Source: Mytilus edulis
Taxonomy: Eukaryota
Assembly: GCF_963676685.1 (NCBI RefSeq)
Contig: NC_092357.1
Coordinates: 21,638,001-21,702,000 of the forward strand
DNA length: 64,000 bases
Direction: 5' to 3'
This document shows positions 252 through 62,800 of the stretch, piece by piece. How positions within the stretch are numbered: the first letter of the stretch is position 1; the number at the start of each line of letters is the position of its first letter. The notes under the pieces were generated by a model. The model did no database searches. It was not told the origin of the DNA and saw only the letters and a program-made list of their open reading frames with translations. The position numbers and the translations under genes are program-made.

Positions 252-508
252 CATACCTGCCAACTTTTCAAAATGCCCATGGGGGTTTTACATGCAAGAT
301 GGATCCTTTAGTTCTACAAAACCATCAAGGGGGCCTTCAAATATATTTTAGTCTTTTTTTTTTGGCTTCTCCATACTAGTACAATCCTATAGCCATTGTA
401 AAATTTATTGTTTTGTTTAAATTGTGGACAAAATTGCTCTTTCAAAATTTCCATTTGAGAGCCTCCATGGGGGAAATCCCCGACAAATAGTGACAGTTGG
501 CAGGTATG
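252..508. mobile_element. MITE with 14-bp terminal inverted repeats
   Basis: CATACCTGCCAACT at 252-265 and AGTTGGCAGGTATG at 495-508; similar GCTAAA(A)T flanks on both sides; no ORF. Confidence 0.7.
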
Positions 509-645
509 GCTAAAATTATCAGCAAGCAGTCCTTTTGCGCCAATTACTGTTTTTCAGGGGTATCATTTCCACCAAAAATTTTTTTTTTAAATGTATCAAT
601 TGCGCCAATTTACCTGTACACATATATGCTTATCATAAATATTAA

Positions 646-3600
646 AGGGAAACTTCGCAAAAAAATCAAAAATTGATATTATGTCCATTCTATATAGAAA
701 TGCTCAAATTTATAGATATTTAAGTTTTATTCCGTTAGATAAGAGATCACCATCGATTTTAAATTTAGAGTATCAATTCTCTGCATTCCGCCATTTTGTC
801 GTCTTCCCCGATTAAAAGTCCCGATATGTCTATAAACCAAAAAGGACAAAAACTACAGTAACAGATGTAGTCATAATTGCGTGTCAATATCTTGTCAATC
901 GTACGATTGTTTTATCTGACAAATTAACTTGATACGGAAAATGTTCTTATTTTTTTTAAATGAACATGGTCTGTTGTTTTTAAACTGTTAATATTGGAAT
1001 TAGGTAAAAAGTCAAAGTTGAAATCATATATATAAGTGTTCCGTGAAAATTGTTTTCGAAAATCTAATTTGTTCATAATTCTTTAAAGTAATAAACTGTT
1101 TTCAAATAAATTTTGATCTTCCCTCTTCTGATCACCAGCATGGCTAAAGGTATTACTTCCAAAGGTATTGTGAGGGGTGTGAGGTGACACGTCCAGGTAT
1201 TCCAGCGATTTCCTGTCGGGCTTGCAAGTTCACGCATCGTTTCACTTCTGCAGGTATTGATCAGTGTACACGGCTGATAACATTTAACTTTCCATTTTGA
1301 ACTATCAGATGTATAATATACAACTCTGTCTTACTTGTCATTACCAAACTCATACGCTTGTTTATAAATAACATTTCTGGTGTAAAGAATATTATTCATA
1401 AAAATATAAATAATACCCAAAATATAAGATTTGATGAAATTAAAATCTATTTAAATATTTTTTCCAAGGGTGAATTTGGGAAAATGTAATATATACTCAT
1501 TGTCAAAAGTGAAGGACAGATTGGAACATACCAGAAATACTGATTTCAAAAATGTACGCACTTGCCGACGATTCGTTTATACGACTGGATAGAAAGTAAC
1601 GGAACTATAGCGCAATTTAAAATATATACATGTATACATTGAACATAAGAAAAAAATATATATTTTGAATAAATAGGGGTAAAAGTGTTGTAAATAGACT
1701 AGTCCATGTATGCCAACAGTATTCAATCATCGAATGTCGATAGACTATTGTATACCAGAAGAAGAAGAGAACCAATTTGATTTAAATACAGGTCGATGTA
1801 TAACTTTTGCTTTGGTTCATTGAAGTTGTGGACATAGTAAAATAAGATTGTTCTCGAACAAAGGAAGGAATTCGTCATCACAATTGTTATATATGCCACT
1901 GGACGAACACTAATTATCCCGAAGGGATGTGAATATTTTGCTGGGAAACTTTTGAGTATCAAAGTTTCAAATTAATTTCGGGATTTTTTTTTCTTTCTTG
2001 GTATTCAATAACAGAAAAAAGAATAAATTACTTGTCCACTAAATAGGGGTATTCTTGTCAGATGAAAGACTTTTAGTTATATTTAAAAAATAGGTAAATA
2101 TGACATTAAATTGGTTCTGTCTTTTTTTTAAACATCGTTAAAAAGATGTGTGTCTAAGGTGAACGCCACAAGAACCCTGTAATACTAGTACGAGAGTATA
2201 GCATGTAAACATTCCTTCTCAATAATATGGTTGTGTTGGAAATCTTTTCATACAGATTGACAACTCATTGTCCGATATGCATGTAATATTTGCCACATGA
2301 CGCCCATAGTTCTTTCTATACATCATCTTATTCTTTGATATTGCTGTCAACATCGATGGTTCACACCCAAACAAAATGGGAGTAATGAACCTTCAGAGCT
2401 TCTCCGTGTTATACACTTGTGAAATATATAGACGAAATTTCTGTATTGAAATGAATATACATCTCACAAACAGGATTTTCAAATAACGATTTTGAGTAAT
2501 CACCTTACAAACCAATATAAACGTATGGCAAGATATAACCATGAAGGAATTTAGTTTTTGTCAGACACAAGAACTCATCACTATCATACACGTATACGTA
2601 TATATGCATACAATTTCAAATATCAAGAACAAGCGGTCGATGTCGATAGTCCGTTTTCCAACTGTTCGAGTTAGACATGTCACTTGTTCATTCTTGAAAG
2701 CCTTCATATTCCCCGTCTAACGATGGGAACTGTTTCTGATTGTGTTGATTATAAATGCTTGTATGTTAATTCTGTCGTTTATCTGTACAAGCGGTTGCAT
2801 TTCCTCTCCTTTCCGAACAAACAAACGAACGAAACGCTACTAGTCTGCTTTCTCTGGAGCTCATCCTCAATGGCTCTTATACGTCAGGAAACTTACATGT
2901 ATACTAATAATGATTGTTTCAAGAACAACGATGTATGGACGAACTATTCTAAATTCGTCAATATCAGTTATGCATGACTAAGATATAACTTTTATTACAA
3001 CTACTGTATGACTTATTTGGATTAATGACGGCTATCATGTTCAACATTGCACAAATATTATCATAGAATTAAAAAAAAATCCTCAAAAATCCTTAAAAAA
3101 AATAATGCCTTAGCTTAGATAATTGGTATTTTTTCACAAAAAGTTCGTGTAAATGATTGTCAAATGAATTTAATTATGTAAGAATAAAATGTTAAAAAGA
3201 AACTAAAAAAAAAATCATGTATGTTGTATTTTTTTGTCAATTAAAAACTTTAAAATTGCAATAGTTTTATTAGCATTTAAACACAGCCAGATTTGAATAC
3301 AAGTTAAGAAATTAAGGTAAAGTCAATGATTTCAAACAGATGTACAATGGTATATCAAATTGGGTAATATTGCATTTAGTTTTTATTAAAGATTAAAACT
3401 ACTAATTTTTACTTCATATTTGAATCTTTACGCCAATTGCCGCTAAGAAAGTAATCAAAAATTGTTTCCTTTTATTTTTACACATTTTCGGATTTACGGA
3501 TCTGAATTTTATTTTCAATTAATTTATACAATTTAATTATTGAATCTTTATTCTCATCGTGTATTAAATCTAAGTGTATTAACATCGTGACATCATACTC

Positions 3601-4432
3601 TTTCTAATCCTTTCTGTTTATCCTTTCCAAATAACAACATTTATACCTGTGTACGCTTGAACTCACACCTGCGGCTAAATAGCTACAAGGTAAACGAATT
3701 GACCTCAAGCCGAGAAAAATACAGTGACCTTTACAAAATAATATACACACTCTGCTCACACATTAGTTGCATTGAAATGATTATCAAAACAATAACGATA
3801 AATAGAACTGAAATATTTTCAGTTCAATAAATATTTCAGTTCAATATCAGTAAAAATGTTCAATAAATATTTTATGAATAAAATCTCAACAATAATTAAT
3901 TAAATTTATTCAAAAACATTTACTAGAGATAATTTTATAGGAGTTTAATTCAATCAATACAAAACGATATATGCATATTCATTTTCGTTCATTATTATAT
4001 TGTGGTTAATAACTACGACCATTTGTCAGCTGTGCGCTTTTAATTACGTATATTGTCGATAAGCTATAAGAGTTAAACAGATTTTATTTTTTCCCAGAAT
4101 TCAATAAATCGGGCTAATACGTCACGACCCACTTGAGAATTCAACCAAAAAAGTTACAGATACTTGATTTTCTCCGTTATTAGCAGAGTTCACGAAAAGT
4201 GTCAGTCCTCAGGATTTCACCACCAAAATTTTGTATAGGACTGACACAATTTTAGTATTTTTCAATAGAGTTAATAGTGAGGACCAGTAGATTTTCTTCA
4301 AGGACCACCAGGGAAAAAAAGATTTCGCGAACTCTGTATTAGAAGGAATATAAATTTAAAACTTTGCAAATGTGTTTTTTATGTTAAGATGAACATAATT
4401 AGATGATAAGTAAAAAATCGCGGAATTTCCCT
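646..4432. mobile_element. Non-autonomous Kolobok-like DNA transposon (TTAA target-site duplication)
   Basis: TTAA|AGGGAAACTTCGC at the left end and GCGGAATTTCCCT|TTAA at the right end; no intact transposase ORF inside. The superfamily is inferred from the TTAA TSD plus AGG termini. Confidence 0.6.
4184..4336. mobile_element. Small MITE nested in the Kolobok-like element
   Basis: CAGAGTTCACGAAA ... TTTCGCGAACTCTG inverted ends; TATTAG on both flanks. Confidence 0.6.
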
Positions 4433-20500: not shown

Positions 20501-23500
20501 TGAAATTAATACAAAGAAATAAAAAAAAAACATGAAAAACTAACGACCGAGGAACACATACTAAATAACCGAATATGATAGCAGGTGCCCCTGAAGAATA
20601 AGTAGATCCTGCTCCTCATGTGACACCTCCTGGAAATTTGATATAGGAAAGTTTAGATAATAATATTTAAAGACTTTACAACCATTTCAGACATATCTAT
20701 TAAATGTCTATGCTATTCAACGCTGTATGCACGAGGACAGATTTGATACACACTTACAAATTTTGTGTTTGCTTGTTTATGGAGCCCCCTTAACCAACTT
20801 AAATTATGTATGCACTAGTATAAAGATGAAAAACTCTTATTTAGTGCCAACAGAATTTTACTTGAGTAACGAATAACCTTCTTTTCCCTTTTAGCCACAG
20901 TTACAAAACATCTGCAAAACATATTTTTGCTATCCTTGGGTCTGTAAGATTTTGGTTAAGAAATATATACCATTATGTTGTTATATCCAAAGTTCTCACA
21001 TTAATCTTTCAACTGTAAAAAAAACTGTGATTGTATTTTTTTAAACGACATAGTATGACATAAATTAAGGAAGTACAGGATTTACCACTTTTCAATTTTT
21101 ACAGCAAAATGCCTTCAGTGTGTACATTAAGGTAATATCTTTGGTTAGCTTGCTTGCTAGCTGAACCGTGAAATCATTTTTAGGTAAGGTATACTACCCT
21201 CCTGTTGGATTAGTGTAGTCCTACAGAAAGATAGGTTGGTTATCTGTCGGGTTAGTCTTCTATTTAAGGAAGGTAGTGTATCCAATTTAATAAGGACTTC
21301 AAGGTTCAGGTAGCAAGCAAGCCAACCAAAGATATTACATTTACCTACACATTCAAGGCATTTTGCTGTAAAACTATACATTTACCTGTTATGGTCCACT
21401 GAAGAATGATTTCTTCACTATCGATTGCTGTGATACTACTTGGTCCTTTCACAATTCGTGGTATTTGTTCCATTCCAGTTTCAATAGGTTGGTCAAAATT
21501 ACAAGGCTTGCTGAAACTTTGAAGAACATCTATATTTTGAAGGTTAATGCGTTCCACAACTCCATCAGTATCTGTAACAGTAAGATCAATCAACGATGGC
21601 CTCTTTGGTTTCTTAACGGTTTGTTCGTCCACAGACTCTGGGCTTAGAGTGTCGACTGATTCTGCAATTTGGGAAACGGTTCCCTCTTCGCTGATTGGGG
21701 ACAGTAAAATACGCGCATCCTTCCCAGGAACAACCGCCAGTATGTTGACGAAGTCATTGAAATCAACATCTTCTAATTCTGGCGGGGATGCATTCTGTAG
21801 TGTATTTGTTTCGGTTATAATACGGCCCATAAGGGACGCCAATGATTGGTTATCACCAATGAATAAAGTATTCGGCAGTGCGGGTCTTGTATCAGATAAA
21901 CTTTCTAGACCAATACTTTCGTCATAGATCTCGTCGGAAGCAGACATTGAATGCAGCTGTTGTAATTTTTCGATACCATGTCTTTTCTGAAACTCTTTAT
22001 CGTCGCATGTGATACCATGTTGTTCGTTATCACTAGTATCATTCATAATTATCTTATCATTAGATTTCTGGTTGTCATTCGCGCTATTTTTGTTGGTTTC
22101 CTTATCTTTTATCGTACTGTTCATTGGTGTATCTGATTCAACGTTTTTACAATCATTATCGTCTGAGAGTTCAGGGGACGTATTTTCTTCGACAATTGGT
22201 AGTTGTTGCTTTCTTGATGCGTCATTAATGACATATGTGCTCAGATCCAGTTGTTTCAGAATGTCACATCTTTCTTCCTCAATTTCTTCCACTGAAACAT
22301 CAGATTCGTCGTCTATGTATTCGTCGGAGGAATAAGGCGTATCTCTAAGATCAACTGTTAGCAGCTCTGATTCATCATTTTCATTATTTTTTCCTTGTTT
22401 TCTACAACTGTCATTTTCTTGTTCCCCAAGTGATCTAAATTTCTCATTATAATCCTGAAGGATTTTGTTACTTTGTTCAACTTGCCTTTGGTCATCATCT
22501 AGAGCAGAATGATTTGCTGGCATATCTTTACTTTTATCTAATAGTTGACCTTTCTTTTTATGTATATCACTGTCCTGACATTGATTGTTATCAAATTCAT
22601 TTTCACTCAATAACTCCATTTCATCAAGCGATTCGTTGATATCAATGTCAGCCAATATTTGCATTTTGTTGTCGTTGATAGAAAGAGATTTGTCGACATC
22701 AACATTAACCAATAGCTCACCCACCTGGTCTTTGTTAGGAGATTCATCAACATCAATATTCACAACAAGGCAATCAATTTTATCCTTTGTGTTGGTTGTG
22801 TCTGTTTCTATATCCAACAATATCGCACTTGATTTGTCCTTCTTATGAGATTCATCGATATCAATATCGGACACCAACTCACCAATTACATCTTTGGTAG
22901 GACATTTATCGTTATCAAAATCTGCCAATATACCAAATCTTTCATCCTTGTTAGACGAATCGTCGATATCAATATTTAACTCCAGTTCACCAATCTCATC
23001 TTTGGTTGGAGATTTGTCTTTATCAAAATCCGACAATATACCTATTATTTTATCATTGGTAAGAGAGTCTTTAATATCGATATCGGATACCAACTCACCA
23101 ATTACATCTGTGGTAGGATATTTATCGTTATCAAAATCCGTGGAAGTTCCAATGCCTTTATCATTGTTAGGCGATTCTTCAATATCGATATCAGACTCAA
23201 GTTCTCTTATCACTTCTTTGGTAGGAGATTTATCGTTTTCCAAATTCGACAAATTACCAATTTTTATATCCTTGTTAGGAGATTCATTGATACCAATATC
23301 AGACACCAGTTCACCAATAACATCTTTGGTAGGAGATTTATCGATATCAATGTCCGTCGAAATACCAACTCTTGTATTCTTGTTAGGAGATTCACCAATA
23401 TTGCTATCAGAAATTAGCTCAACAATCTCATCTTTAGTAGGAGATTTAGCGTCACCAAAATCGGACAATATACCAATCCCTTTATCCTTGTCAGGAGATT

Positions 23501-26500
23501 CATTGATACCAATATCTGACATCAGCTCACAAATTTCAACTTTGGTAGGAGATTTATCGTTTTCAATTTCCGTCGAGATTCCAATGTCCTTAGCCTTGTT
23601 AAGAGATTTTTCAACGTCAATATCAGACACCAACTCACCAATTATATCTTTGGTAGGAGATTTATCGTTATCAAAATCCGTCAATATACCAATTCTTGTA
23701 TCCTTGTTATGAGATTCGTCAAAATCAATATCGGACACCAACGCACCAATTACATCTTTGGTAGGAGATTTACCGATATCAATTTCTGTCGAAATACCGA
23801 TTCCTTTATCCTTGTTCAGAGATTTTTCGGTATCAAAATCAGACACTAATTCAGAATTAATACCCTCGTCATTCGATTCTTTTTCCTTGGTTTTGTACGA
23901 TTGGCGAGAATCTTCATCCTTGATTTCATTTTCTTGAATTAAGCTTGATTCTTTTCCATTTTGAATATCTTCGATGTGGTTGATAGTTTTTAGGTCGCCA
24001 ATCTTGCTAGGTTTCTCTCCAAATTTGCATAAGAAAAAAATCTCATCATCTATATCTTGATACGATAGAGCATCCAAGTTTGTCTCGGAAAGGCTATAAT
24101 CGTCACCACTTTCATACATGGACCAGCTTTCTGCCGACTGCAAAGAAAGTGTGTTACTCCTAGTTTCATCTAACATAGGTTTCTTTAAATGTAAATTCGG
24201 ACGAATCTCTGCTAAGATCTGTTGCTCTTCTTCGTCTGAATGAAACAAATGCTCTCCGTCATTGCTTCCATTGTCATTGGCCAAATCAACAATATCTTCT
24301 CCTGTGTTTTCGTCTGATTTAACGAACGTTATGTCCTTCGGTTTTTCGAAAGTCTTTTCCTCTAGAGTTGTTTTTTCGATGTCTCTACTACCTGTCTCTC
24401 GTAAGAGGTCAAGTTTTTCATACCCTGCAGCATTGATTTTATCATCACAACTCAAGTTTTCGGCAGTCTGGTTGTCTACCATTTCATCTTTTCCAGCAGA
24501 TTCACACATTTCATCTTTTCCAGCAGATTCACTAATTTCATCTTTTTCAGCAGAATCACACATTTCATCTTTTCCGATGCTGTCATGAATACCATTCCTG
24601 GCAAATTTACCGTCATCTGTTTTGTCTACATTCTGGTACGGAAAAGCATCAAAATTTGACTCTGAGAGTGTACAGTCATGACCACTGTCATAAACTGACC
24701 AACTTTCAGCCGAAAACGCGTTACTTGTGGAATCATCAAACAATTGCTTTTTCATGTGTAAGTTTGGACGAATTTCTTCCAGGATTCTGTGTTCTTCTTC
24801 GTCGGAATGAAAATTTTCCTCTCCATCATCCTCGCTGTTACTGTTTTCTGCTTCGAATTGAGGGTTCTTTTCTTCAATTGCATTTGGCTTTTGTTTTAAT
24901 TGATGATTTGTAATACCATCTATTAACCTGTCGTTAATATCGCTGGTTTTGGGATTTTGTACAAAGTTTTCAACCTCATTTTCATTCTCACATATTTGGA
25001 TAGGTTTGCAGTCAGTGCCTTCTTTATCGTCAACACCTTGATATCTACTTTTGTCAATGTAGTTTGAAGGCTGGTCGATATCCGATGTGATACTATTTTG
25101 ATCTTCCTTTTTCGAAGTACTTGAAGAAGTTTTGTTGTCGAAAGGGTCAACATTTCTACCAGATGGAGATACTTTATCATTGGGAATATTTTTCGTTGAT
25201 TCAAGCTCTTGATCATTTATTTCACGTCTTGTACATCTATCATCAAAAGGATCATCACAAGAGGGACTCTTTTTTGCACGTTTTTTATTATGTTGGTCTG
25301 AATATTTTCGAGATGACCTTCGTTTGTCTCCCATATGATCTACATCTTCATCTGATGATGGAGGAGAATAATCATCGTCTGCGATTCCGCTATCTCCTGT
25401 TAACCTCCTCGCGCGGTTGAATTCGTCATCTGCTTTAAGAAAACTTGCAAGCTCCTCCACAGTATCTTCCAGTCCGACTTGAAGATCTTCATCGTCACTC
25501 ACTTCATCGATAGATATTGTTACCTTACTTCCTTTGTTTTCATTTTGCTGTTTAATGGAACTACTCGACGAAAAATGACCGCTATCTGTTTCAGCTAAAT
25601 CTACGTCTTGTGCTTTTCCACTGTCAGCGATAGCTTTTCCGTCTAAATTATCGGTTTCAAGCATGGTGTCATTATTAGTAATATTATTAACTGACATATC
25701 AATCTTATTCTGGTCAGAACCAGGAAAGGAGATATTTCTCTTTCCATCTTCGACCGTAGCACTTCCAGTAGAAAGAACCTTCATAGATATCTGGCGGATA
25801 CCGTTTGCCGATAAAGAGCGATCAATTTGATCTATGCTAAGAAAATCATCCAAGTTTTCTGTTTTATCCAAGTTAGCTAGAACCAATGGTCTTTTGTTGC
25901 TATCTTTTCTGGAACCAGATTGATCGAAGGTCATTCTGTGGACTGTCAGTGTGTCATCAGTCTTGTCAGTATCTGTACCTACAAATAAGTGAATGCGTCA
26001 ATTAAATGTTTTATTGTCTTCAAGAGTCATTTAACCTTGACTTTTATTTTTATTTTACAGTCGGCATTCTTGTGTTTAAGTATATAAATTCTTCAAAGTA
26101 TAATGATGTACACGTGAGTAGTATAATATCTGTGATTTTTTTTTTAAATAATTGTTTTTTTGGAGCAGGGAAAATGTTGTAAATGGTAATCAGCTCAATT
26201 ATTTGTAAGCATGTTGTACTTTAAAGGTTAATAAAAAAAAATGCATCGATGTTAAATATAATTTTGTACAATTTGCAAATTTCGTAATGTAATTATATTA
26301 CCAGTTCTCAGAAAAAGGAAAAATGCTTTCCTCACAAGCCATGTGTATTATTCTTCTTTATAAAAAAATATTAATTTCCAGTCGGTTGGGCCCAAAATGT
26401 TTCTCAATCAATAGTTAAATTTATTTTCAGGCGTCGTGCTGTCTTGTCATAGTAACCTTAAATTAAGACAACAGTAGTAAACCGGTGTTCAAAAGTCATA

Positions 26501-36087: not shown

Positions 36088-38282
36088 GAGAATCTCAATA
36101 GGACATTTGAGCGAAAAAGAAAAAAGCACATAGGGTCATTTGAGCGCCGACTTCATAGGACATTTGAGCGCCGGGATATTAACCTTACCTGAGTTTTCAG
36201 ACAGGACATTTGAGCGAAATTTTCCCTGATAATTTTACACGAAGTAATTCGACCGGTTCTGGCTGGTTTATGTAAGTGAAATCCTAAGTTGATCTCTATT
36301 TACCAATCAATTCTACTATAATTCATTGGCTATGCAAATTTTCTTTGTTCTAAAATTCTTATATATATATCTATTAAGTGAAATGTCCCTTGGCACTTGA
36401 AATCTTAATACTAATAATACATGTACGTGTTAAAATGGATATTATTTTGACCGAGACTAATAAGGGAAAAAGAAGCCTTGTTTGTGACAGTTTCCGATAT
36501 AGAGTGGACAAAACACTAAAAGGAGAAGAAATATCCTGGAGATGTACAGTAAGTACCTTTTTTTACAAATTTAATGTTAATGTAAACTACTTGTTCGTCT
36601 GTTACGCTTCAACTTCCATAACTTCTTTTAATTTTGATTTATATCTATATCATTATATGTCTATCTTATACCTCCTTTAGATTAATTTTTTAACACATTT
36701 GAATATAAGCTACCACATATAGGGTTAGGTTGATTTTCTAGGCACTTTACAATATTCATACAATACACTGTAAAAATTGTGCTTAGAGCCTAAACATGTT
36801 TAGGAAAATGTTTAGAAGCTAAACACATAAATGTCTGTGGTGTTCCCATTCTAAACATGTTATGAATTTCATTTCATTTCATTTCATACTACATCTTATT
36901 TTTATGTCTTGCAATAGCAAATGAAAAAGCATTTAAACACTTCAATTGTATTTGTCCTTTCAATATTTTTCAGGCAAAAGGTTGCAAAGCAAGACTGAGG
37001 ACGGATTGTACCGGAACCGTTATAATTCAACAGAAAAATACTCATAACCATGATACCAGTGATCGTGACAATGAACGTCACTTGCTGCGGGTACGATCAA
37101 AAAGAAAAGCGGATGATGTTATGTCCCTCTTGTATTCTGCTTACTTCCTGGAAAGTCTGAAGAAATTTACGTGAATTGCTTTTCCTCAATTGTCAAGCTA
37201 TGTTCCGATCAAGGTCACACACTTCAACCGAAAGCAGTACACGTCGATTTTGAAGAACGGGTAATGAAAGTTATGAAGGATTTTTTCCCGTCTATAGAGA
37301 TCAAATGCTGTAGGTTTCACTTAGGCCAAGCCTGGTGGCGAAAAATCCAGAAAGTTGGACTTAGTCAACAATACAAAGAGCTTGATTCAGACATTAGTAA
37401 ATGGCTTAAAGGGATTTTTGGGATAGCCTTTTTAGCTCCAGACGAAGTAGCCGACTGTTTCGTAGAAGATTTTATGGCCGTTGTACCTAACGACAAGCCT
37501 TGTATAGAATTTGCAGATTACCTGACTGATACTTATATAACAGATGAATCGTTATTTCCCCCTCATCTCTGGGCCGAAGTTCCATCCTCGTTAAAACGTA
37601 CTAACAATGGGCCCGAATCATTTCATGCCCATTATAACGAGCAGTTCTATCACAGTCATCCATCAATTTATATTTTCCTTGACACTATTATCAAATTGCA
37701 ATCTGTGACTTACATAAAAATTCGGAGTTTGAACATTGATGCACCGCAGAGCCGAACAGAAAAGGAGAAGGAACAGAATCTCCGGGATTTGCATTCGAAA
37801 TACTGCCAGCAGGAAATTACGAGGGATTTTTATGTCAGAAGCCTGGGATATAAGTTCCAAGCCCGAACAGACTTGTAAATAATGCCGTTGCCGAGTTTTA
37901 TGTTTTATGACAGTGCTTTGTTTTTAGTGCTTTGTTTACAATTAAAAGATGTTTTAATCTTTTTGTTGGTAAACTCCTGTTTTATGACTGTGCTTTGTTT
38001 TTAGTGCTTTGTTTTTTACAATTAAAATATGTTTTAATCTTTTTGTTGGTAAACTCCTCATTTAATGAACTATATTCGTAAGAAAATGTGGTATGATTGC
38101 CAATAAGACAATTCTCTATCCAAGACTTGTTTTCGCTCAAATGTCCTACGCTTATTCTTATTTTTGCTCAAATGTCCTAAAATTTAGGCGCTCAAATGTC
38201 CTATACTTTGGCGCTCAAACGTCCTTTTTTTTCGCTCAAATGTCCTGTCAATGCGCTCAAATGTCCATTGCTGTAAAATCTC
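36088..38282 (+). mobile_element. MULE (Mutator-like) DNA transposon, internally deleted
   Basis: TIRs built of repeated AGGACATTTGAGCG (left) and CGCTCAAATGTCC (right); encloses a FLYWCH plus MULE transposase gene; no clear TSD, so the ends are approximate. Confidence 0.85.
36435..37878 (+). pseudogene. FLYWCH-MULE transposase, spliced (36435-36548, then from 36974), with a deletion and frameshift at about 37118
   Basis: Exon 1 MDIILTETNKGK...WRCT|gtaagt; exon 2 AKGCKARL...HNH; then a frame jump to YVPLVFCLLPGKS...VDFE...CRFHLGQAWWRKI...RTNNGPESFH. The segment carrying the first catalytic Asp (DGTF-type) is missing. Confidence 0.85.
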
Positions 38283-53800: not shown

Positions 53801-56800
53801 GTGTCTTTATAAGTGTAACCGTAAGCTGAGATTCAAAACAGTACAGTAACAAATTTGCTTTCAAAGTGGCGGAATTGGCGCCTAAAGAAATACTAACAAC
53901 CTGTCGATTAACTAATTTTGAGAAATTTACATTAATGTTGGCATCGAAAAAAATATAAGAAGCATTATTGTTTTTTTGGTCTGCAATATATTGTTCGAAT
54001 GTTTATACTTACCAAAGTCTATTGGGTTGCCTCTGACCACCTAAATAAATGAAAATAAAGCAAAAACATGTCAGAAAAACAAAAGGGTGTCTGGAATTTT
54101 ACTGGATTAATAGTCATCTTAAAGGAGTAAGCTCTGTAAGGGTCATATTTGGCCCCCATTAAAAGTTCAATGCTACAAGATAAGAAAATGTTCAAATTTG
54201 ACTAAAATATTCAATGGACATTTACCCATTCTCATTGTTTCTCGATAAAAATCAAAAAGAGTTTGTTACTCTTGTTACTATTTGTGACGTCATGAATAAA
54301 AGGCAAGAACGTAAATTTACAACAAATTTACTTATTTCCTGTTTACTCAAAGTATTATTCATTGTAATTTTGGTCAATAAATCCCAATTGGAAATTTAAT
54401 CTAACAAATGGGGCAATTTTAGGGTCTTGTCGAACCTACTCATTCTTTTTGCATAGGAAAATTTGTGTACACGACTAACAAAGCAAAATTTCTTTAAAAA
54501 ATGTCTTTAAAAAGACAAAAATGATAAGATACTAGTAGTTAAAAAAAAGGTCTTCAAATTGAAGAATATATGAATGACTAGAAATATACCTTACCTTGCA
54601 AAGAGTGTGAATGCTCCGTATTTTACCAATTTCGACTGCTTTTCTGATGTCATCAAATGTTATATGGGTACCCACGACGGTTTTGTGGAGTGCCTCAAAT
54701 TTCAATCTTTCTGGTTCTTCTCCAAATGTAACATACAGATCATCCCATGGTTGATAGTCCATCCCAAGATGCATTGCCAACTCTTTTGTTTCGGTTATGC
54801 TGTACTGCATTGACAATCGATGTAGATGAATATCTGAGGGAATCTGTTCTAAAAACTCAGTATCGGTTACTGAAATGTTCATAGAAAAAAATATTATCAA
54901 TATTTAAAAGGAATATTAAAAATATAAAGAAGTAGATTTGAAACAATTCTGAATGAGACAACTATTCACAAGAAACCAAAACTTACACATAAATTAACTA
55001 CTATAGGTCACCGTAAGGCCTTTAATAATGAGCCAAAAAAGCACATTTGATAGGATCTTATAATGTCTAATTATAAAATGTTAGGCTTAAAAAAAATCTA
55101 TACGAAATAAGGAATATAACAGTTGTATTCCAGTTGAGCACGTTAATTTTTCATGTTTTATGGACTATAAATAAGTAAATATAAGATATGTTGTATACGA
55201 TCTGAATACCGACAATGATAATGGGTCTGATAAAAATGATGGGTTTGCACGAAAAAATCGATTACATAACTATGATAACATTTTGTCAATTTCTTAGTTG
55301 TTCAACAGTAGAAAAGGTAAAACCATATTCCTCAATGCAATCATACACCGATTTATAAAGTCTTCAAACCTTTTCATCATAAACAATGTAGTTTTTTACT
55401 GATCGCTTTATACACATTCAAAACAACTGCACCGTATTTCAAATTAGGACTATCGACATTAATTGATAAAAAAAATGATACACCTAAAGAATATAAATTA
55501 ATAGAAGTAATGCATTATAAACTAGTGGTATTCCTGCGTCATGTCAAAGCATTTTATCACATTATTACAGATAACAAGAATATAAAAAAATCATGCAGAA
55601 CATCTTTTTCTCTCTCCTTGGAATGAGGATCAAATAATATAGACTCTTCCTTCATTAGATAACGTTGTTTTGTCCTCATTTAAGATTAAACTGTTTAAAA
55701 ACAAAAATGTGTAAACAATTTTCACTAAATAGCAATCATGCAATAGATAAATCATACAGCAAATACGTCACCTGGGCATGATTTTCCACATTGAAATTCG
55801 TCCTAAAATATACATTAACACCGAATAAGTTAATAAGGAAATATGAGTAAGAATAAACAAAAGGGTAATCAGATATAAGGACACAGAGCATTTGGACAAG
55901 AAATAAACAAAACTCACTTTACAGTAGGCTTATGATTAAGTTTATTCGAAAGTAGAAAAAATAAATTCCGGATTCCGGAGCAATGTACGGTTTGCAAGAT
56001 TTTTGGGAAACATGTATTTCAGGTAAATATTCTGGGAATTCTCGCTACATTGAAGACCCATTGGTTGCCTTACGGAGTTTAGTATGACGTCCATTATCAC
56101 TGTACTATTATGCATATTTTAGGGGCCAGCTGAAGGACACCTACGGGTGCGGGAATTCTCGCTACATTGAAGACCCATTGGTTGCCTTCGGCTGTTGTTT
56201 GCTCTATGGTCGGGTGGTTGTCGCTTTGACATAGTCACCATTTCCTTTCTCAATTTTATTTTTTACAGAGTTTGTCTTTAGTGCCGTGTGGAGACAGTAG
56301 AGTGCCTCCCCGTGCTTAAGGTTTATGCTCTTATATTATACTAGATTATGGAGTGTGTGTCCGAGCGAGAACTTCTCTATGTTCATTACTTTAGGAATAT
56401 CTATCAAAAAGTAGTATTTTAATATTCAGCCCCATTCATCTATTTAGTCAGACGTCAGTCGCTACCTTGATATACCCTTTCTTTTTTAAATTTGTCGGGT
56501 AACTTATGACAATAAGCATTTGACGTCTTGAGCCGAACAGTTTTATCATTTTTACACAATTTAATCTACTGTGTGATGGTTCATATTCTGGACGCCAGTC
56601 TTTGCTCCTTTGTAATAAATCTACATACCAAAAAACAAATATGAAGCTTAGAAATGGAAAAATATTAAATACTAAACTCGTTCAAAGGGTATCTACACGT
56701 CTCAATCTTCAGAATCGCTTATCTAAAAATACTACTATAGCTAACGTTTTTAACAATAAAAATCGTGGTTACCCTTCTATCGATAAGTGTCATGCCAAAA

Positions 56801-59800
56801 AATGACTTACGTGTCCCCGTCTTTCCACCAACAATACAGTAAGGTCCACATTTAATGGTCGCACATTTTCTCTAAATTTTGAAACTGATATTACTTGAAA
56901 AACAAACAGTATTATTTATTTACTCACATGAAACAAACCGGGATGCGGTATTCAGTACGTAGGTGAAACTGGGCGATATTTATCTAAACGCACGCAAGAA
57001 CACCTGTATCGTTTTAAAAGACCCAATAAATTCAAAAGTATCATTTATCAACATCTTAAGAAGCACAGTCATCCTATTAAATATTTAACAGTTCAACCTT
57101 TAGAAGTAGTAAATAAGCAGCCTGGTGAATCTCATTCCAAGTTTGTACGATCACGAAAAATAAATGAATTAAATTGGATTAAAAAATTACAGACAGTCTA
57201 CCCTCTCGGTCTTAATGATAATATCATGGGAATTGGCAATATATCAAGAACCGATTCTGTTAACATTTTGGATATAGTTTCTAAAACTGTTCGTAAAAAT
57301 CGTTCTCATGGACGCAGAAAAAATCGCAATCAAAGAAAATTTCGGACTAACCATACAAATATTTCGGACCTAATTTCCATTTCAAAAAACAACGGCAGAC
57401 ATTATCTGTTAACCAAGCTTTGTTCTTTACCTATAAATAAATTAAATAAAATTTTAGAGGATTGCAACACAATTTCATATTACAGTCCTAAGTATGAAAT
57501 TGTCCAAATTATAATGGCATATTGTTATTCTAAACTGTTTCCAAAAATTGATCGACCTGAAGATCATAAAAAACCTTTTATTAAAATAAAGTATGTCAAT
57601 AAAGGTTTTGATTTTGTAAATATTGCCGGCATTTTTAACGACCATTCTGTTAAAGACCAAATTCCTGGATATTTTGATAATACTGAACTCCCTCTCATTT
57701 GTTATATTTACAAGAAATCTACCCGAAAATATGTGTTTAATTATAGCCAATTGTGTAAAGATGTAAATATCACTGAAAATACACCTATGTCGTGTAATTG
57801 CAGTAATTCAGAATACACCTATGGACCAATTTCCCATGTTATAACAGGAGACCTTAACATCGTTCGCGACCGAGAGTTAAAATCATTCCTCAGTAAAGGA
57901 CCTAAATATCGTCCCCCGTCAACTATTAACTGGAATGAGTGTCGTAATATCATCAACGACTCACTCCGCGCCTACTGTTTGAAATGGGTAAAACGGGAAA
58001 AAGCTGACAAAAAATCTTTGGACTCTTTTATTAATTCAGTAATGAAGATAGTTGATATTCGAATACAACATTTTAAAGAACATTTTACCCTCAACAAAAA
58101 CTATAAAAACCCTATTTCGCGTATCAAAAATAAACTAACAGAACTAGCCAAGGAATTTGTTTTTGTCCCGGCTGATAAAGCTGCTAATAATATCATTATT
58201 GTTTGACGTAAATTTTATATAGAGGTTCTGCAAAAGGAAATCACGAATTCACCAACATTCCAACTGACTTCATTTTCAGAAAACGACATCTGTAACAAAC
58301 ATAAACTTTTAGCTACTTCTTTACAAGCAGAACCAAACACAATGAAAGTCCCAACTATGTACTGGCTTCCGAAGCTGCACAAAAAACCTTACAAATATAG
58401 ATTTATTTCATCTTCCAGCCATTGTTCAACTACTAAATTGTCTGTTTTACTTACTAGTACACTTGGTACAATAAAAAACCTGATAATAAATTGTTCAAAT
58501 AAGGCCTTTGAAAATAGTGGAATTAATTACTTTTGGAGTGTCAAAAACTCGTTGGAAGTACTTGATAAATTGCATGCATATATTGGTGATTTTGAATCTG
58601 TTCAAAGTTTTGATTTTTCTACCCTATATACCACTTTGCCTCATATTCTTATTAAGAAAAAATTCACATCCCTAATTAACTGGGCATTTAAAAAGTCGGA
58701 ATGCGAGTACATATGTTCAAACTCTTTTAGATCATTTTTTAGTAGCAATAAACAAAAGAACTATGTCAATTGGACATGCTTTGATACTATTTATGCACTT
58801 GAATTTTTACTTGATAACATTTTTGTTCGCTTTGGAGATTCCGTATATCGTCAAGTTATTGGAATTCCAATGGGGACTAACTGTGCACCACTTATTGCGG
58901 ACCTGTTTTTGTATTGTTATGAGTTACAATTTATGACTAAAATTAGCAAAGACCCATCAAAACAACATTTGATACAAAAATTTAACAATACTTTTAGATA
59001 TTTGGATGATATATTGGCTCTAAATAATGACGACTTCAGTATGTATACTAAAGAAATTTATCCTGTAGAACTTACTTTAAATAAAGCTAATGATAACAAT
59101 GACCACTGCCCTTTCCTCGATCTTGATATCTATATCATAAACGGGAAGCTTAATACAAAAATTTATGATAAAAGAGATGATTTTTCATTTCCTATTGTTA
59201 ATTATCCATTTTTAGATGGTGACGTTCCCTTGTCACCATCTTATGGTGTTTATATATCTCAACTTGTACGATTCGCTCGTGTATGTAACAATGTATTAGA
59301 TTTTAGCGAGAGAAATTTATGTATTACTGAAAAATTATTACACCAGGGTTTTCGATATCACAAACTGGTCAAAACATTTACTAAATTTTATCACCGGTAT
59401 AAGGAAATAATTCGTAAATATAACTCAACATGCAGACATCTTATACGTTCAGGTATTTCACATCCAAAATTTTATGGAAATATTCTTTATAAAGCACAAA
59501 AATGTCAGTATTCTCCTCAGAAACTAACAAAACCTTTAAATAGACTTATTAAAAGGGGATATAGTTACGATACTGTTGTCAGGTCATTAAAGATTGCATA
59601 TTTTGGCTTTAACATTGATTCACTGATAGGGTCTTTGCATCGGAACTAAACACATTTACTTCTAAAAAAACAGTTGTTGGCATGACACGGGTTATGTTCT
59701 TCTCATATATTTTATGATAGTATGATACTAAACCCCTAACGGGAGGGATTGTACCTGATATTCATATGATGAAGACATAATCTTTCAATCAGTTTAATTG

Positions 59801-62800
59801 AGGTCTGGAGCTGGCATGTCAGTTAACTGCTAGTAGTCTGTTGTTATTTATGTATTATTGTCATTTTATTTATTTTCTTTTGTTACATCTTTTGACATCA
59901 GACTCGGACTTCTCTTGAACTGAATTTTAATGTGCGTATTGTTATTCTTTTACTTTTCTACATTGGCTAGAGGTATAGGGGGAGGGTTGAGATCTCATAA
60001 ACATGTTTAACCCCGCCGCAATTTTGCGCCTGCCCCAAGTCAGGAGCCTCTGGCCTTTGTTAGTCTTGTATGATTTTAAATTTTAGTTTCTTGTGTATAA
60101 TTCGGAGTTTAGTATGACGTCCATTATCACTGTACTATTATGCATATTTTAGGGGCCAGCTGAAGGACACCTACGGGTGCGGGAATTCTCGCTACATTGA
60201 AGACCCATTGGTTGCCTTCGGCTGTTGATTGCTCTATGGTCGGGTGGTTGTCGCTTTGACATATTCACCATTTCCTTTCTCAATTTTATTTTCATTATAT
60301 CTCGAAACTAATAATCCTTGTCGAAAGGTTATTGGCCTGTATATAAAAAGTACTGTCAGTATCCCATATAGAAGAGGTAGGAAGACTTTATGCACAAATT
60401 TAAGATACTTCTTTTTCTTATATTGATATTTACCAACAGCCTAATGTCTTATTTCAATCTAAAAGATTGTAAATTTTTTCTTTTTACATTTTGGAAACAG
60501 GACTCACTTATATCTTCTAGTCATATAAATTTATGTGGTACGATGTGTTGTTATTTAAAAAATCATGATTGACCAAACATATAAAACAGAAAAGTTGACC
60601 ATGCATATATTATATGTTTAATGACATAATAGGAATGAGCTACGCTATTAAGATAACATTATCAAAATATTGAACCCTTTTTTTTTATTTAGTAGTCATC
60701 ACTATGTTAAAATCTAAACATAATTTACATACACAACTTTGAATTTGTTTACTTATTATGTTTAACTTATACAACTTTTAAAGAGTATTAGGCAAAAGCA
60801 TTGGAAATTTTGACTCCGGAAAGTTCTTCGATTTCCTATCGTATTTAGCCTTTTAACGTTTTTGATTTGAGTGTCACTAATGAGGCGGTTGCAGACGAAA
60901 CGTGGTGTACACAATTATAATCCAGGTATCGGTGATGTTGTATTCTTTTGCCGAATATACGAGACACGTTCAAAGTTGAAGATAGGTAAATAAAAATACA
61001 ACAGTTCTTTTGCATTTGCCTAGGACTTTAGTTTGAAGTTAATTCTATGTTAAAATTTCTTAATTTCTTAATTTTGAAAATGAATATGTGCCAAGTATTT
61101 AAGATTATTATTCAAAACACATCTATCATGGTATAACCTTAGACTAAATGGTTTAGTGAAAAAATAAATTTTTACAGATATCCATCAAAAAAGTTGAAGA
61201 ACATCAGAAGTTTTTAACGTATTTATAGAAGTTATGTTTTAATTGTATTTACCTTTTGTATGGCCCACGACGACATCATGTCTTTGGTGTGCTCGATTCC
61301 GTGTTTTGGACATATCCATGAACCGTCTTGTTGTTGAAGTGTTGATATTGGCAATAGACAAGGATCGTCAGATGAACTGCAACACAAACTTAGATTGAAA
61401 AAGCTTTTGCTGGCAACAAAATCTGTACTGCTGGTTTTGACGTACAGCTGACTTATTTTCTCAAGAGCAACAGTTAAACATTCACGAATACTAGATGCAA
61501 GATCTCTCATAATGAGTGTTCGATTCCGCAAGTGAACAAGACGGACAACTATGATTTCATCATCACAGTTTACACACATATCTAGAGATTGGTCAATATT
61601 AAAAACAGCTGACCTATGAAACAATAATTCATCATCCTTCTGTCCGTATGTTTTAACTGCAAAGATACTCAAGCAATAACTGATGAATCGAAAGGATAAA
61701 GCCGGTGGTATCATTGAGGAAGAGTAGCTAAAAGCTATAGCGATATTACTCTGAGTGAATGTCGGCGACATAAGATAACCTGTTGTGTCATTGGTTCGTA
61801 CCATGCTGGCAACGTAGTAGAATTCAGCTGGTATACGTGTTTGTGACTTATCATATCGTTTGGGTTCAACTAGTATATCAAGATGTGTCATGACTCCTAA
61901 TAAATATTCCTTATGATCTTTAAACTTTATGTACTTTTTCTTCTTCCAGATTTTTTCTATGGAAGTCTTCTCTATTATGCCTTTCTTACTCATCAAATCC
62001 CAAGATTTCAGTCTCTTTGTGTCACCTTTACAAAAGCTTCTATCAGTAACGATCGATTTAAAGGCATCAATCAGATGTGTCGGCGACAGAATGATGTGTT
62101 GATCCAAATTAACCTCATCAAAGTATAAGATCCGTCCAACAGAGTGCTGAAATTTGAGAAATACTTTCAATTCTTCTTCAGTTAATGGTCGAACAGGTTG
62201 AAGGGAATTAATTCTCTCCATTTGCTCCATTGTTATTGACAGATTGTTTCTACTCAGAAGTGACTCGAATTCCCATTCAAGAGGAATGAAGCATTTGGGA
62301 AGATGCTGTCCCCATGTCGGTTGCATCATTGCCTGCTCAGTTATAACCTTTTTGATTTTCGCCATTTCTGGATCACGTTTGTTCTTTGTATTTACAAATA
62401 TTTGCTCTTTAATTACTAGATGCGACAGTAATGGACTTCCAGAAAACATCTTCTCTATTTCACGAAATAATTTGCGACGTCTTGCTTCAACTTCCATCTG
62501 TAAACAAACCTGTTGTCTTGAGTTTTGTGAATATATAGAATACCAAACTGTTATACATGTAGCTGAATAATACATACTAGTAATGAAATGATATCTACTT
62601 GCGTATTTCATTAATAGTTCTATAAATGTAATATGTAGTTTATAATAAACACACTTTAATATATACATTTTCTTTTTCTGCATTTTAGTGCAGACTAGAA
62701 CAATGTTACTGCAACTGTTTTATACGAAAATTTCTTTTTCAGTAAATTTAAAACAATATAGAAGCCATTTGTTTATATCAATCTGTCGTTGATGTTGCTA

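Follow-up and report, generated by a model that had tools for sequence, protein, structure and literature searches.

The DNA analysed here, called the window throughout, is a stretch of 64,000 nucleotides from the mussel Mytilus edulis (assembly GCF_963676685.1, contig NC_092357.1, forward-strand positions 21,638,001 to 21,702,000), and it carries a young Naiad Penelope-like element (PLE). The element displays the structural hallmarks of Naiads, namely pseudo-long terminal repeats (pseudo-LTRs, here a 190-nt direct repeat, 99% identical, at a spacing of 4030), partial tandems, 5' truncation and a unit size within 3.4-4.4 kb. In its single open reading frame (ORF), in-frame TGA occurs at codons 55, 86, 97 and 522 only and, when these are translated as selenocysteine (Sec, U), the product joins an N-terminal GIY-YIG endonuclease (EN) to a reverse transcriptase (RT) resembling that of telomerase. 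Between EN and the RT core, the translation contains a KR-rich block, CxC, GxKY (as GPKY) and DKA, with conservation of at least 90% at C385, C387, G420 and D512-K513-A514. No hammerhead family was found among Rfam matches up to an E-value of 10, no dedicated hammerhead descriptor search being made.

Features of the Naiad element, in window coordinates
Feature	Position	Strand	Remarks
Extra 38-nt piece by the 5' pseudo-LTR	56034-56071	+	
Full-length Naiad PLE, subfamily A	56073..60292	+	4030-bp unit plus terminal repeat
5' pseudo-LTR	56073..56262	+	3' end of preceding truncated unit; 190-nt direct repeat
Single ORF	56641..59649	+	ATG 56641, TAA 59649; 1002 aa with TGA as Sec
Predicted metal site 1 (C4)	56788..56898	+	C50, U55, C58, U86; upstream of GIY
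TGA codon 55	56803-56805	+	U55
TGA codon 86	56896-56898	+	U86
GIY-YIG catalytic core	56911..57216	+	IIY 91-93, YVG 106-108, R117, H121, E176, N192
TGA codon 97	56929-56931	+	U97
Predicted metal site 2 (CCHH)	56929..57072	+	U97, C102 (56944-56946), H138 (57052-57054), H144 (57070-57072)
Predicted metal site 3, CxC..H part	57793..57837	+	C385, C387, H399; U522 is the predicted fourth ligand
DKA motif and U522	58174..58206	+	U522 codon 58204-58206
TGA codon 522	58204-58206	+	U522
RT catalytic YLDD motif	58999..59010	+	from sequence
SECIS element	59704-59768	+	55 nt past TAA; Rfam SECIS_1
3' pseudo-LTR	60103..60292	+	190-nt direct repeat

In the mussel's own genome (1.37 Gb in 14 large contigs), copies of the element are dispersed, in tandem or 5'-truncated and are 99.4-99.9% identical. 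A second subfamily, B, is ~ 92% identical to the window subfamily A and carries all four TGAs too; together, the two young Sec subfamilies are present as about 360 EN-containing copies. Three loci (L066, L065 and L032) display mixed A/B variant patterns, L066 being without many B variants and the others 97% and 98.7% identical respectively, and are possibly a third subfamily or recombinants.

A Pfam scan of the 1002-residue protein gave no real domain and phmmer with EN found no relative in PDB, so that alignment with I-TevI needed a profile search, in which R117, H121 and E176 align with I-TevI core residues. The EN model (pLDDT 92.8) matches I-TevI 1ln0_A with Z 10.4 and rmsd 1.9 over 91 aligned residues, and its best fold matches are GIY-YIG nucleases. 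Foldseek with the same model returned nothing at E ≤ 0.001, its top rows being I-TevI at 3e-3. In this model residues 97 and 102 close a β-hairpin and H138 is found on the next-but-one helix. The full-length model (pLDDT 87.1) matches telomerase RTs (E 6e-11). No zinc-finger structure was seen among the fold matches, an absence that excludes nothing.

UGA codons, SECIS and host selenocysteine machinery

The four in-frame UGAs are very probably decoded as Sec by means of the selenocysteine insertion sequence (SECIS) located 3' of the ORF. Of the 29 Cys/U positions, 9 are 98-100% Cys across 72 homologues, and all four TGAs are among these 9 (P=0.005). The three TGAs of EN are kept in 147 of the 150 best-scoring EN copies of the genome, though the query carried Cys, and TGA522 is kept in 149 of the 150 best copies, the lone exception being AGA. 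When 58 A records, not de-duplicated, are compared with 12 B records, fixed differences affect 24% of synonymous sites (pS 0.24) with a ratio of nonsynonymous to synonymous divergence (dN/dS) of 0.09 over 688 codons; by segment the ratio is 0.05 for codons 1-96 and 0.08 for codons 523-700, and codons 87-96 show no change at all. Furthermore, C102 has switched between TGC and TGT from one subfamily to the other while all four TGAs stayed, and no TAA or TAG substitution is common to the copies.

A genetic code with TGA as Trp was rejected, given that Cys columns alone are affected and that the host has tRNA-Sec, and so was CpG decay from CGA, the affected columns being Cys and not Arg. No strong hairpin follows the UGAs (-3.7 to -8.7 kcal/mol over 60 nt, with no shuffle control), and the following base is C, A, A and C at codons 55, 86, 97 and 522 respectively, which yields no common context rule. 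RNA reads of a related species, which may derive from host introns, span the whole ORF and are mostly subfamily-B-like; a sense bias over EN was observed in one of three RNA-seq runs (60 vs 12 at 56778-56918, run X22).

The SECIS carries the AUGA/GA quartet, the AA motif, a paired helix II and an apical mini-helix, with a fold z of -2.5. Helix II exhibits two-sided changes at 10 of 10 pairs, a level reached by none of 500 shuffles, in a set of 9 sequences that were picked as SECIS-like and are mutually related. In a simple scan, 11 of 18 loci of the Sec clade had a SECIS-like site 3' of the ORF compared to 0 of 13 Cys-only loci; with Rfam, 20 Sec-clade loci yielded 6 SECIS matches and 15 Cys-type loci yielded none. 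With our own covariance model no second SECIS was detected in the window. Beyond its training set and two copies of the window subfamily, this model recovered a single further locus, L100, and it missed L098, L099, L103, L106, L107 and L155; a SECIS is thus not demonstrated at every TGA-bearing locus.

On the host side, five tRNA-Sec genes score above cut-off in the genome, where many animals usually have just one, and the anticodon TCA was confirmed in three of them. They are found at L190-L192 and two more places (C7, C1), four of equal score lying within 0.6 Mb of C7. Across the 3' untranslated region, from the SECIS to the pseudo-LTR (59739-60292), RNA depth is 10-30x the EN depth in three runs, as expected because of the many 5'-truncated copies, which spread SECIS elements through the genome.

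Predicted metal sites and Sec/Cys exchange

Besides H121 and H580, the near-invariant Cys and His residues of the protein make up three sets of four (50/55/58/86, 97/102/138/144 and 385/387/399/522). Judging from the sequence, these sets likely form three metal sites (C4, CCHH and CCHC) with Sec as ligand; the metal would most likely be zinc and U522 is probably a ligand as well. Within the second set, H138 is conserved in 183 of 188 homologues and position 144 is His in 140 and Cys in 31 of 184. H142, which is not conserved, was rejected as a CCHH ligand, and so was H121, a member of the R/H/E/N core that is aligned with the I-TevI His located four residues past the catalytic Arg.

A previous sequence-only reading of this DNA had described C-x4-U-x2-C, U86 and U-x4-C over 56788..56946, a span that indeed runs from C50 to C102, and a fourth U just after ADK, which is U522, ten residues after the D of DKA. 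It had set all three EN Sec residues between the GIY and YIG halves. This holds for U97-x4-C102, but C50, U55, C58 and U86 lie upstream as a separate motif. Among the His residues it proposed for the zinc motif, the one of EH is H121 and falls away; in QHLKKHSH, H138 and H144 match the two His marked in Fig. S2 of Craig et al. and H142 drops out. Its observation that Sec occupies zinc-finger-like Cys positions is right and was already stated for four Naiads in the accessible part of Craig et al. (PMC8557442). Its proposal that Sec is a metal ligand is retained here, with the difference that it left U522 outside the metal sites.

The Sec-as-ligand reading is indirectly supported by the conserved four-ligand sets, the His/Cys exchange at 144, the co-presence of ligands across PLE clades and the swapping of Sec and Cys. 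As to co-presence, in the alignments of Craig et al. available and inspected by eye, Cys86 accompanies the upstream CX2-5CxxC in Naiad, Neptune, Nematis, Hydra and Terminon rows and is missing from Penelope/Poseidon, Chlamys and homing EN rows. In the same alignments all 23 Chlamys/PLE-X rows have Cys522, together with CxC and a later His, and none of the 18 rows from clades that lack CxC has it. Each of these two associations counts as one origin, though kept from algae to animals. Mean-field covariation over 161 EN sequences, a set too shallow for the purpose, gave one weak coupling for site 2, K99-Y148 (9th strongest, z 5.2), and no coupling for sites 1 and 3; C86-C97 (z 5.2) was discarded for shared TGA/W states and C50-C55 for shared truncation.

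Swapping was examined in 17 of 69 loci, a selection of Sec-clade members that are mostly in frame. In these, TGA is found at 27 of 66 Cys/TGA codons in ligand positions compared to 5 of 275 elsewhere. Codon 385 is TGA in 6 of 12 loci, codon 522 is TGA in 11 and Cys in 6 of the 17, and the states are intermixed on the tree. A TGA within CxC had been predicted from truncated relatives and was then seen at 385 in eight loci (metagenome DNA). One Sec-Naiad family, ~ 63% identical (L095, at 479-3481, and L096), carries five in-frame TGAs (55, 86, 97, 385 and 522) and a SECIS at 3614-3684; L097 has a SECIS and no in-frame TGA over its covered residues 247-1000. At the protein level, 17 of 189 EN homologues have Trp, taken as TGA, at position 86, 14 have it at 97 and 2 at 55; all of these group with the query in a single clade of 30 rows (SH-aLRT 97, quick tree), and TGA at 86 and 97 persists across this clade down to about 30-45% identity. 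A search of viral contigs gave 78 pattern matches and no confirmed relative.

The mussel genome itself holds Cys counterparts. Exact matches at codon 97 are TGA in 198 A and 162 B copies and Cys in 0 A and 6 B copies, the latter being TGC in L197 and L199-L202 and TGT in L198; L201 and L202 look locally duplicated and L197-L202 show no clean frame in the portion retrieved. TGC97 occurs in four independent insertions compared to 0.17 expected by chance; therefore a source with Cys97 must have been copied, either in cis or in trans, but remained rare. Moreover, the genome also contains two intact Naiad families with Cys only (L223 at 479-3493 and L224 at 351-3338, with many copies whose open frames have ~ 1000 residues), their ORFs of 995-1004 residues being open, with no in-frame TGA and no SECIS. 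Given the swapping at 385, 522 and sometimes 97, together with these intact Cys-only Naiads, Sec looks like an exchangeable structural ligand and not a catalytic need.

Mechanism and rival explanations

We thus favour, with a probability of about 0.6, the reading that this young Naiad has three separate sites of four ligands each, in which the Sec residues are structural metal ligands that Cys can replace. According to this model a single SECIS gain would have been followed by interconversion of ligand Cys codons and TGA in both directions, the hold on TGA being firmest at 86 and 97. The SECIS would draw on the host Sec machinery and Sec would supply ligands to three structural sites; the full-length protein would then nick DNA through its GIY-YIG domain and prime reverse transcription, steps that are established for another PLE in the available part of the source (PMC11167929). 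A wider form of the model is less likely than not: natural selenolate-zinc fingers at all three sites, with a hitherto unrecognised CxC-H...U site clamping the linker to the DKA hairpin, Sec convergent in bivalves and spiders at all ligands but the second Cys of each pair, and four or five UGAs per SECIS letting host selenium set the retrotransposase level, as a nutrient-throttled element competing with selenium-independent Naiads. The predicted DKA β-hairpin (protein 506-525, window 58156-58215) terminates in U-R-K. The telomerase T-motif hairpin, ending in Y-R-K, presumably resembles it and, given that likeness, site 3 may shape an RNA-binding surface.

Several points weigh against the structural-ligand reading. 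The three-site grouping was deduced from conservation, site 3 would link residues 120 apart, and any essential Cys, ligand or not, would yield an enrichment of TGA on conserved Cys. The literature examined held no report of zinc binding by any PLE protein, and the CX2-5CxxC finger is called tentative in the part of Craig et al. consulted (PMC8557442). The SECIS_1 score of 30.9 bits (E 0.0034) is under the Rfam gathering score of 35. Five TGAs lie off the ligand set, in L100 and L102 (codon 434-436), L108 (882), L103 (819) and L098 (312); the TGA near 434, common to two sister loci with Cys522, suggests Sec at a non-ligand Cys. Loci are related by descent, so the counts above are not independent events. 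Furthermore, every clade member with coverage of position 86 has TGA or W there (TGA in 4 of 4 loci, W in 17 proteins), and this retention, together with the rarity of Cys97, indicates that Sec is probably favoured over Cys there. Finally, the second Cys of the pairs is never TGA (C58 0/4, C102 0/4, C387 0/13), which plain interchangeability of Sec and Cys does not explain and which a redox reading of UxxC fits.

Such a redox switch would make Sec the reactive first member of UxxC, Ux4C and UxC, where oxidation to a selenenyl-sulfide or to selenenic acid, whether or not the metal is released, would toggle EN or RNA binding or reversibly protect the protein from oxidation. Besides the unconverted second Cys, it draws on the firm hold of TGA at 86 and 97 across the clade and on spiders, which in the accessible part of the published account independently place Sec on the same Cys (55, 86 and 522). 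However, no Cys is close to U86 or U522 in the sequence, Sec and Cys trade places freely at 385 and 522, Cys97 copies multiplied, all-Cys Naiads are intact in the same host and the EN model matches GIY-YIG nucleases. A thioredoxin-like UxxC selenoenzyme would have an oxidoreductase fold with one catalytic Sec; the present protein has four Sec, exchangeable with Cys at 385, 522 and 97. As an explanation of its own the switch is judged unlikely; it is compatible with structural ligands as an added layer, for which the unconverted second Cys of each pair would leave room. That the TGAs are true stops, or leaky sites read as Trp or Cys, in an element that is dead or mobilized in trans, is hardly credible. 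Sec insertion is predicted here from the sequence, the SECIS falls short of the gathering score, and Cys-only Naiads of the genome could act in trans; but purifying selection was seen in each segment measured, the TGAs lie at Cys columns only, a covarying SECIS is restricted to TGA-bearing families and the copies share no other stop.

Selenium supply might also be the point of the UGAs. Sec insertion has been put at 10-25% per UGA in a selenium-dependent manner, according to the part of the source available (PMC8704476), and four independent read-throughs would leave p^4 of full-length protein, i.e. 0.004 (0.4%) at p=0.25, or more if decoding is processive. Full-length output would fall steeply when Sec-tRNA is short, because four read-throughs are needed. 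A throttle of this kind on protein amount is expected from general recoding biology, and whether it matters in vivo is an even call. The sequence-only reading went further and proposed a selected gate, with UGAs kept to tie transposition to selenium and U522 setting the ratio of fragment to full EN-RT protein, which under independent read-through would be (1-p)/p. The steep p^4 dependence and the presence of three UGAs within the first 97 codons agree with this, but the TGAs follow ligand Cys and not a fixed interdomain place, processive decoding would flatten the response, and a gate that let both subfamilies produce hundreds of EN-containing copies was not tight. We regard it as decidedly doubtful. 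Its supposed endonuclease-only product does not hold either: the 521-residue piece would contain EN, the KR-rich block, CxC, GxKY and DKA, and site 3 would be short of a ligand in it. More improbable still is a tuned EN:RT switch at U522, the position not being conserved as a UGA: it is Cys in 6 of the 17 Sec-clade loci, and L097 is devoid of TGA over the residues covered.

Related systems and surrounding sequence

The core observation, Naiads with Sec, is already in print: Craig et al. 2021 (PMC8557442) described four, from two clams and two spiders. In the part of that work available, UGAs are placed at the Cys that precedes GIY, at another located eight residues past DKA and, in clams, the first Cys of CCHH, with spider UGAs also on the first, or first and second, Cys of CX2-5CxxC; nearly all Sec is noted to fall in the two zinc-finger-like motifs or by DKA, a catalytic advantage is suggested and the mussel Naiads are Cys-only. 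Its Fig. 3 and S3A are picture-only and may mark further residues, which bears on novelty. Literature searches found no later work on Sec-Naiads, and one bioRxiv preprint does not mention selenium in the passages checked. The present analysis adds a much larger Sec clade, a Sec position within CxC that is new, the suggestion of a third site completed by U522, and natural Cys controls inside a single genome; the mussel is a probable new host group.

As far as the accessible text and figures go, the clam elements Naiad_Mmer and Naiad_Scon resemble the window element in their N-terminal GIY-YIG domain and RT, in Sec at 86, 97 (with the same U-x4-C spacing) and 522, and in one SECIS just past the stop. 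The window element differs by an extra Sec at 55 and by a SECIS located 55 nt past the stop with an apical mini-helix, compared to the type I SECIS 1-21 nt past the stop in that paper, and its relatives add a fifth site in CxC (385) that the same text does not list. The spider elements Naiad_Sdum and Naiad_Smim agree with the window element in the Sec residues at 86 and 522, and Sdum in that at the U55 position as well, but they have Sec at 50, Cys at 97 and a reduced IFD, and are of independent origin according to the paper. The Cys-only Naiad_Mcor, Naiad_Mgal, Naiad_CGi, L223 and L224 display the same domain order and Cys/His ligand sets but neither in-frame TGA nor SECIS. I-TevI (PDB 1ln0) and telomerase RT match the predicted folds but lack the three Cys/His sets and hence offer no metal-site template.

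Sec on a metal is known from formate dehydrogenase (Mo) and [NiFeSe] hydrogenase (Ni), these two metals being the only ones listed in the accessible part of a review (PMC10298544). There, as predicted here, a selenolate replaces the Cys thiolate on the metal; those enzymes are catalytic and prokaryotic with one Sec per site, whereas here a mobile element of a eukaryote would have several such ligands, exchangeable and probably structural. Literature searches, with subscription papers and preprint supplements outside their coverage, found no natural Sec-zinc site. If true, the three-site model would be a natural case of Sec as structural zinc ligand and the CxC motif of Naiad and Chlamys would gain a function. 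For the question of why Naiads use Sec, this genome is a ready test set, with Sec subfamilies, the Cys97 variant and Cys-only families side by side. The Sec-Naiad family is much wider than four elements and has been hidden as gene callers cut ORFs at TGA or write Trp.

Opposite-strand host exons flank the element at window 61232-62719 (-) and 54532-54903 (-), the former with a COR-A domain (PF16095, E 2e-11), and this Naiad copy probably sits inside an intron of a Roc-COR gene. Elsewhere in the window, a MULE transposase domain fragment (PF10551, E 2e-7) was found at 37117-37878 (+), and a 1550-codon acidic open frame with ~ 40-residue Asp/Ser/Ile-rich repeats and no Pfam match lies at 21345-25997 (-).

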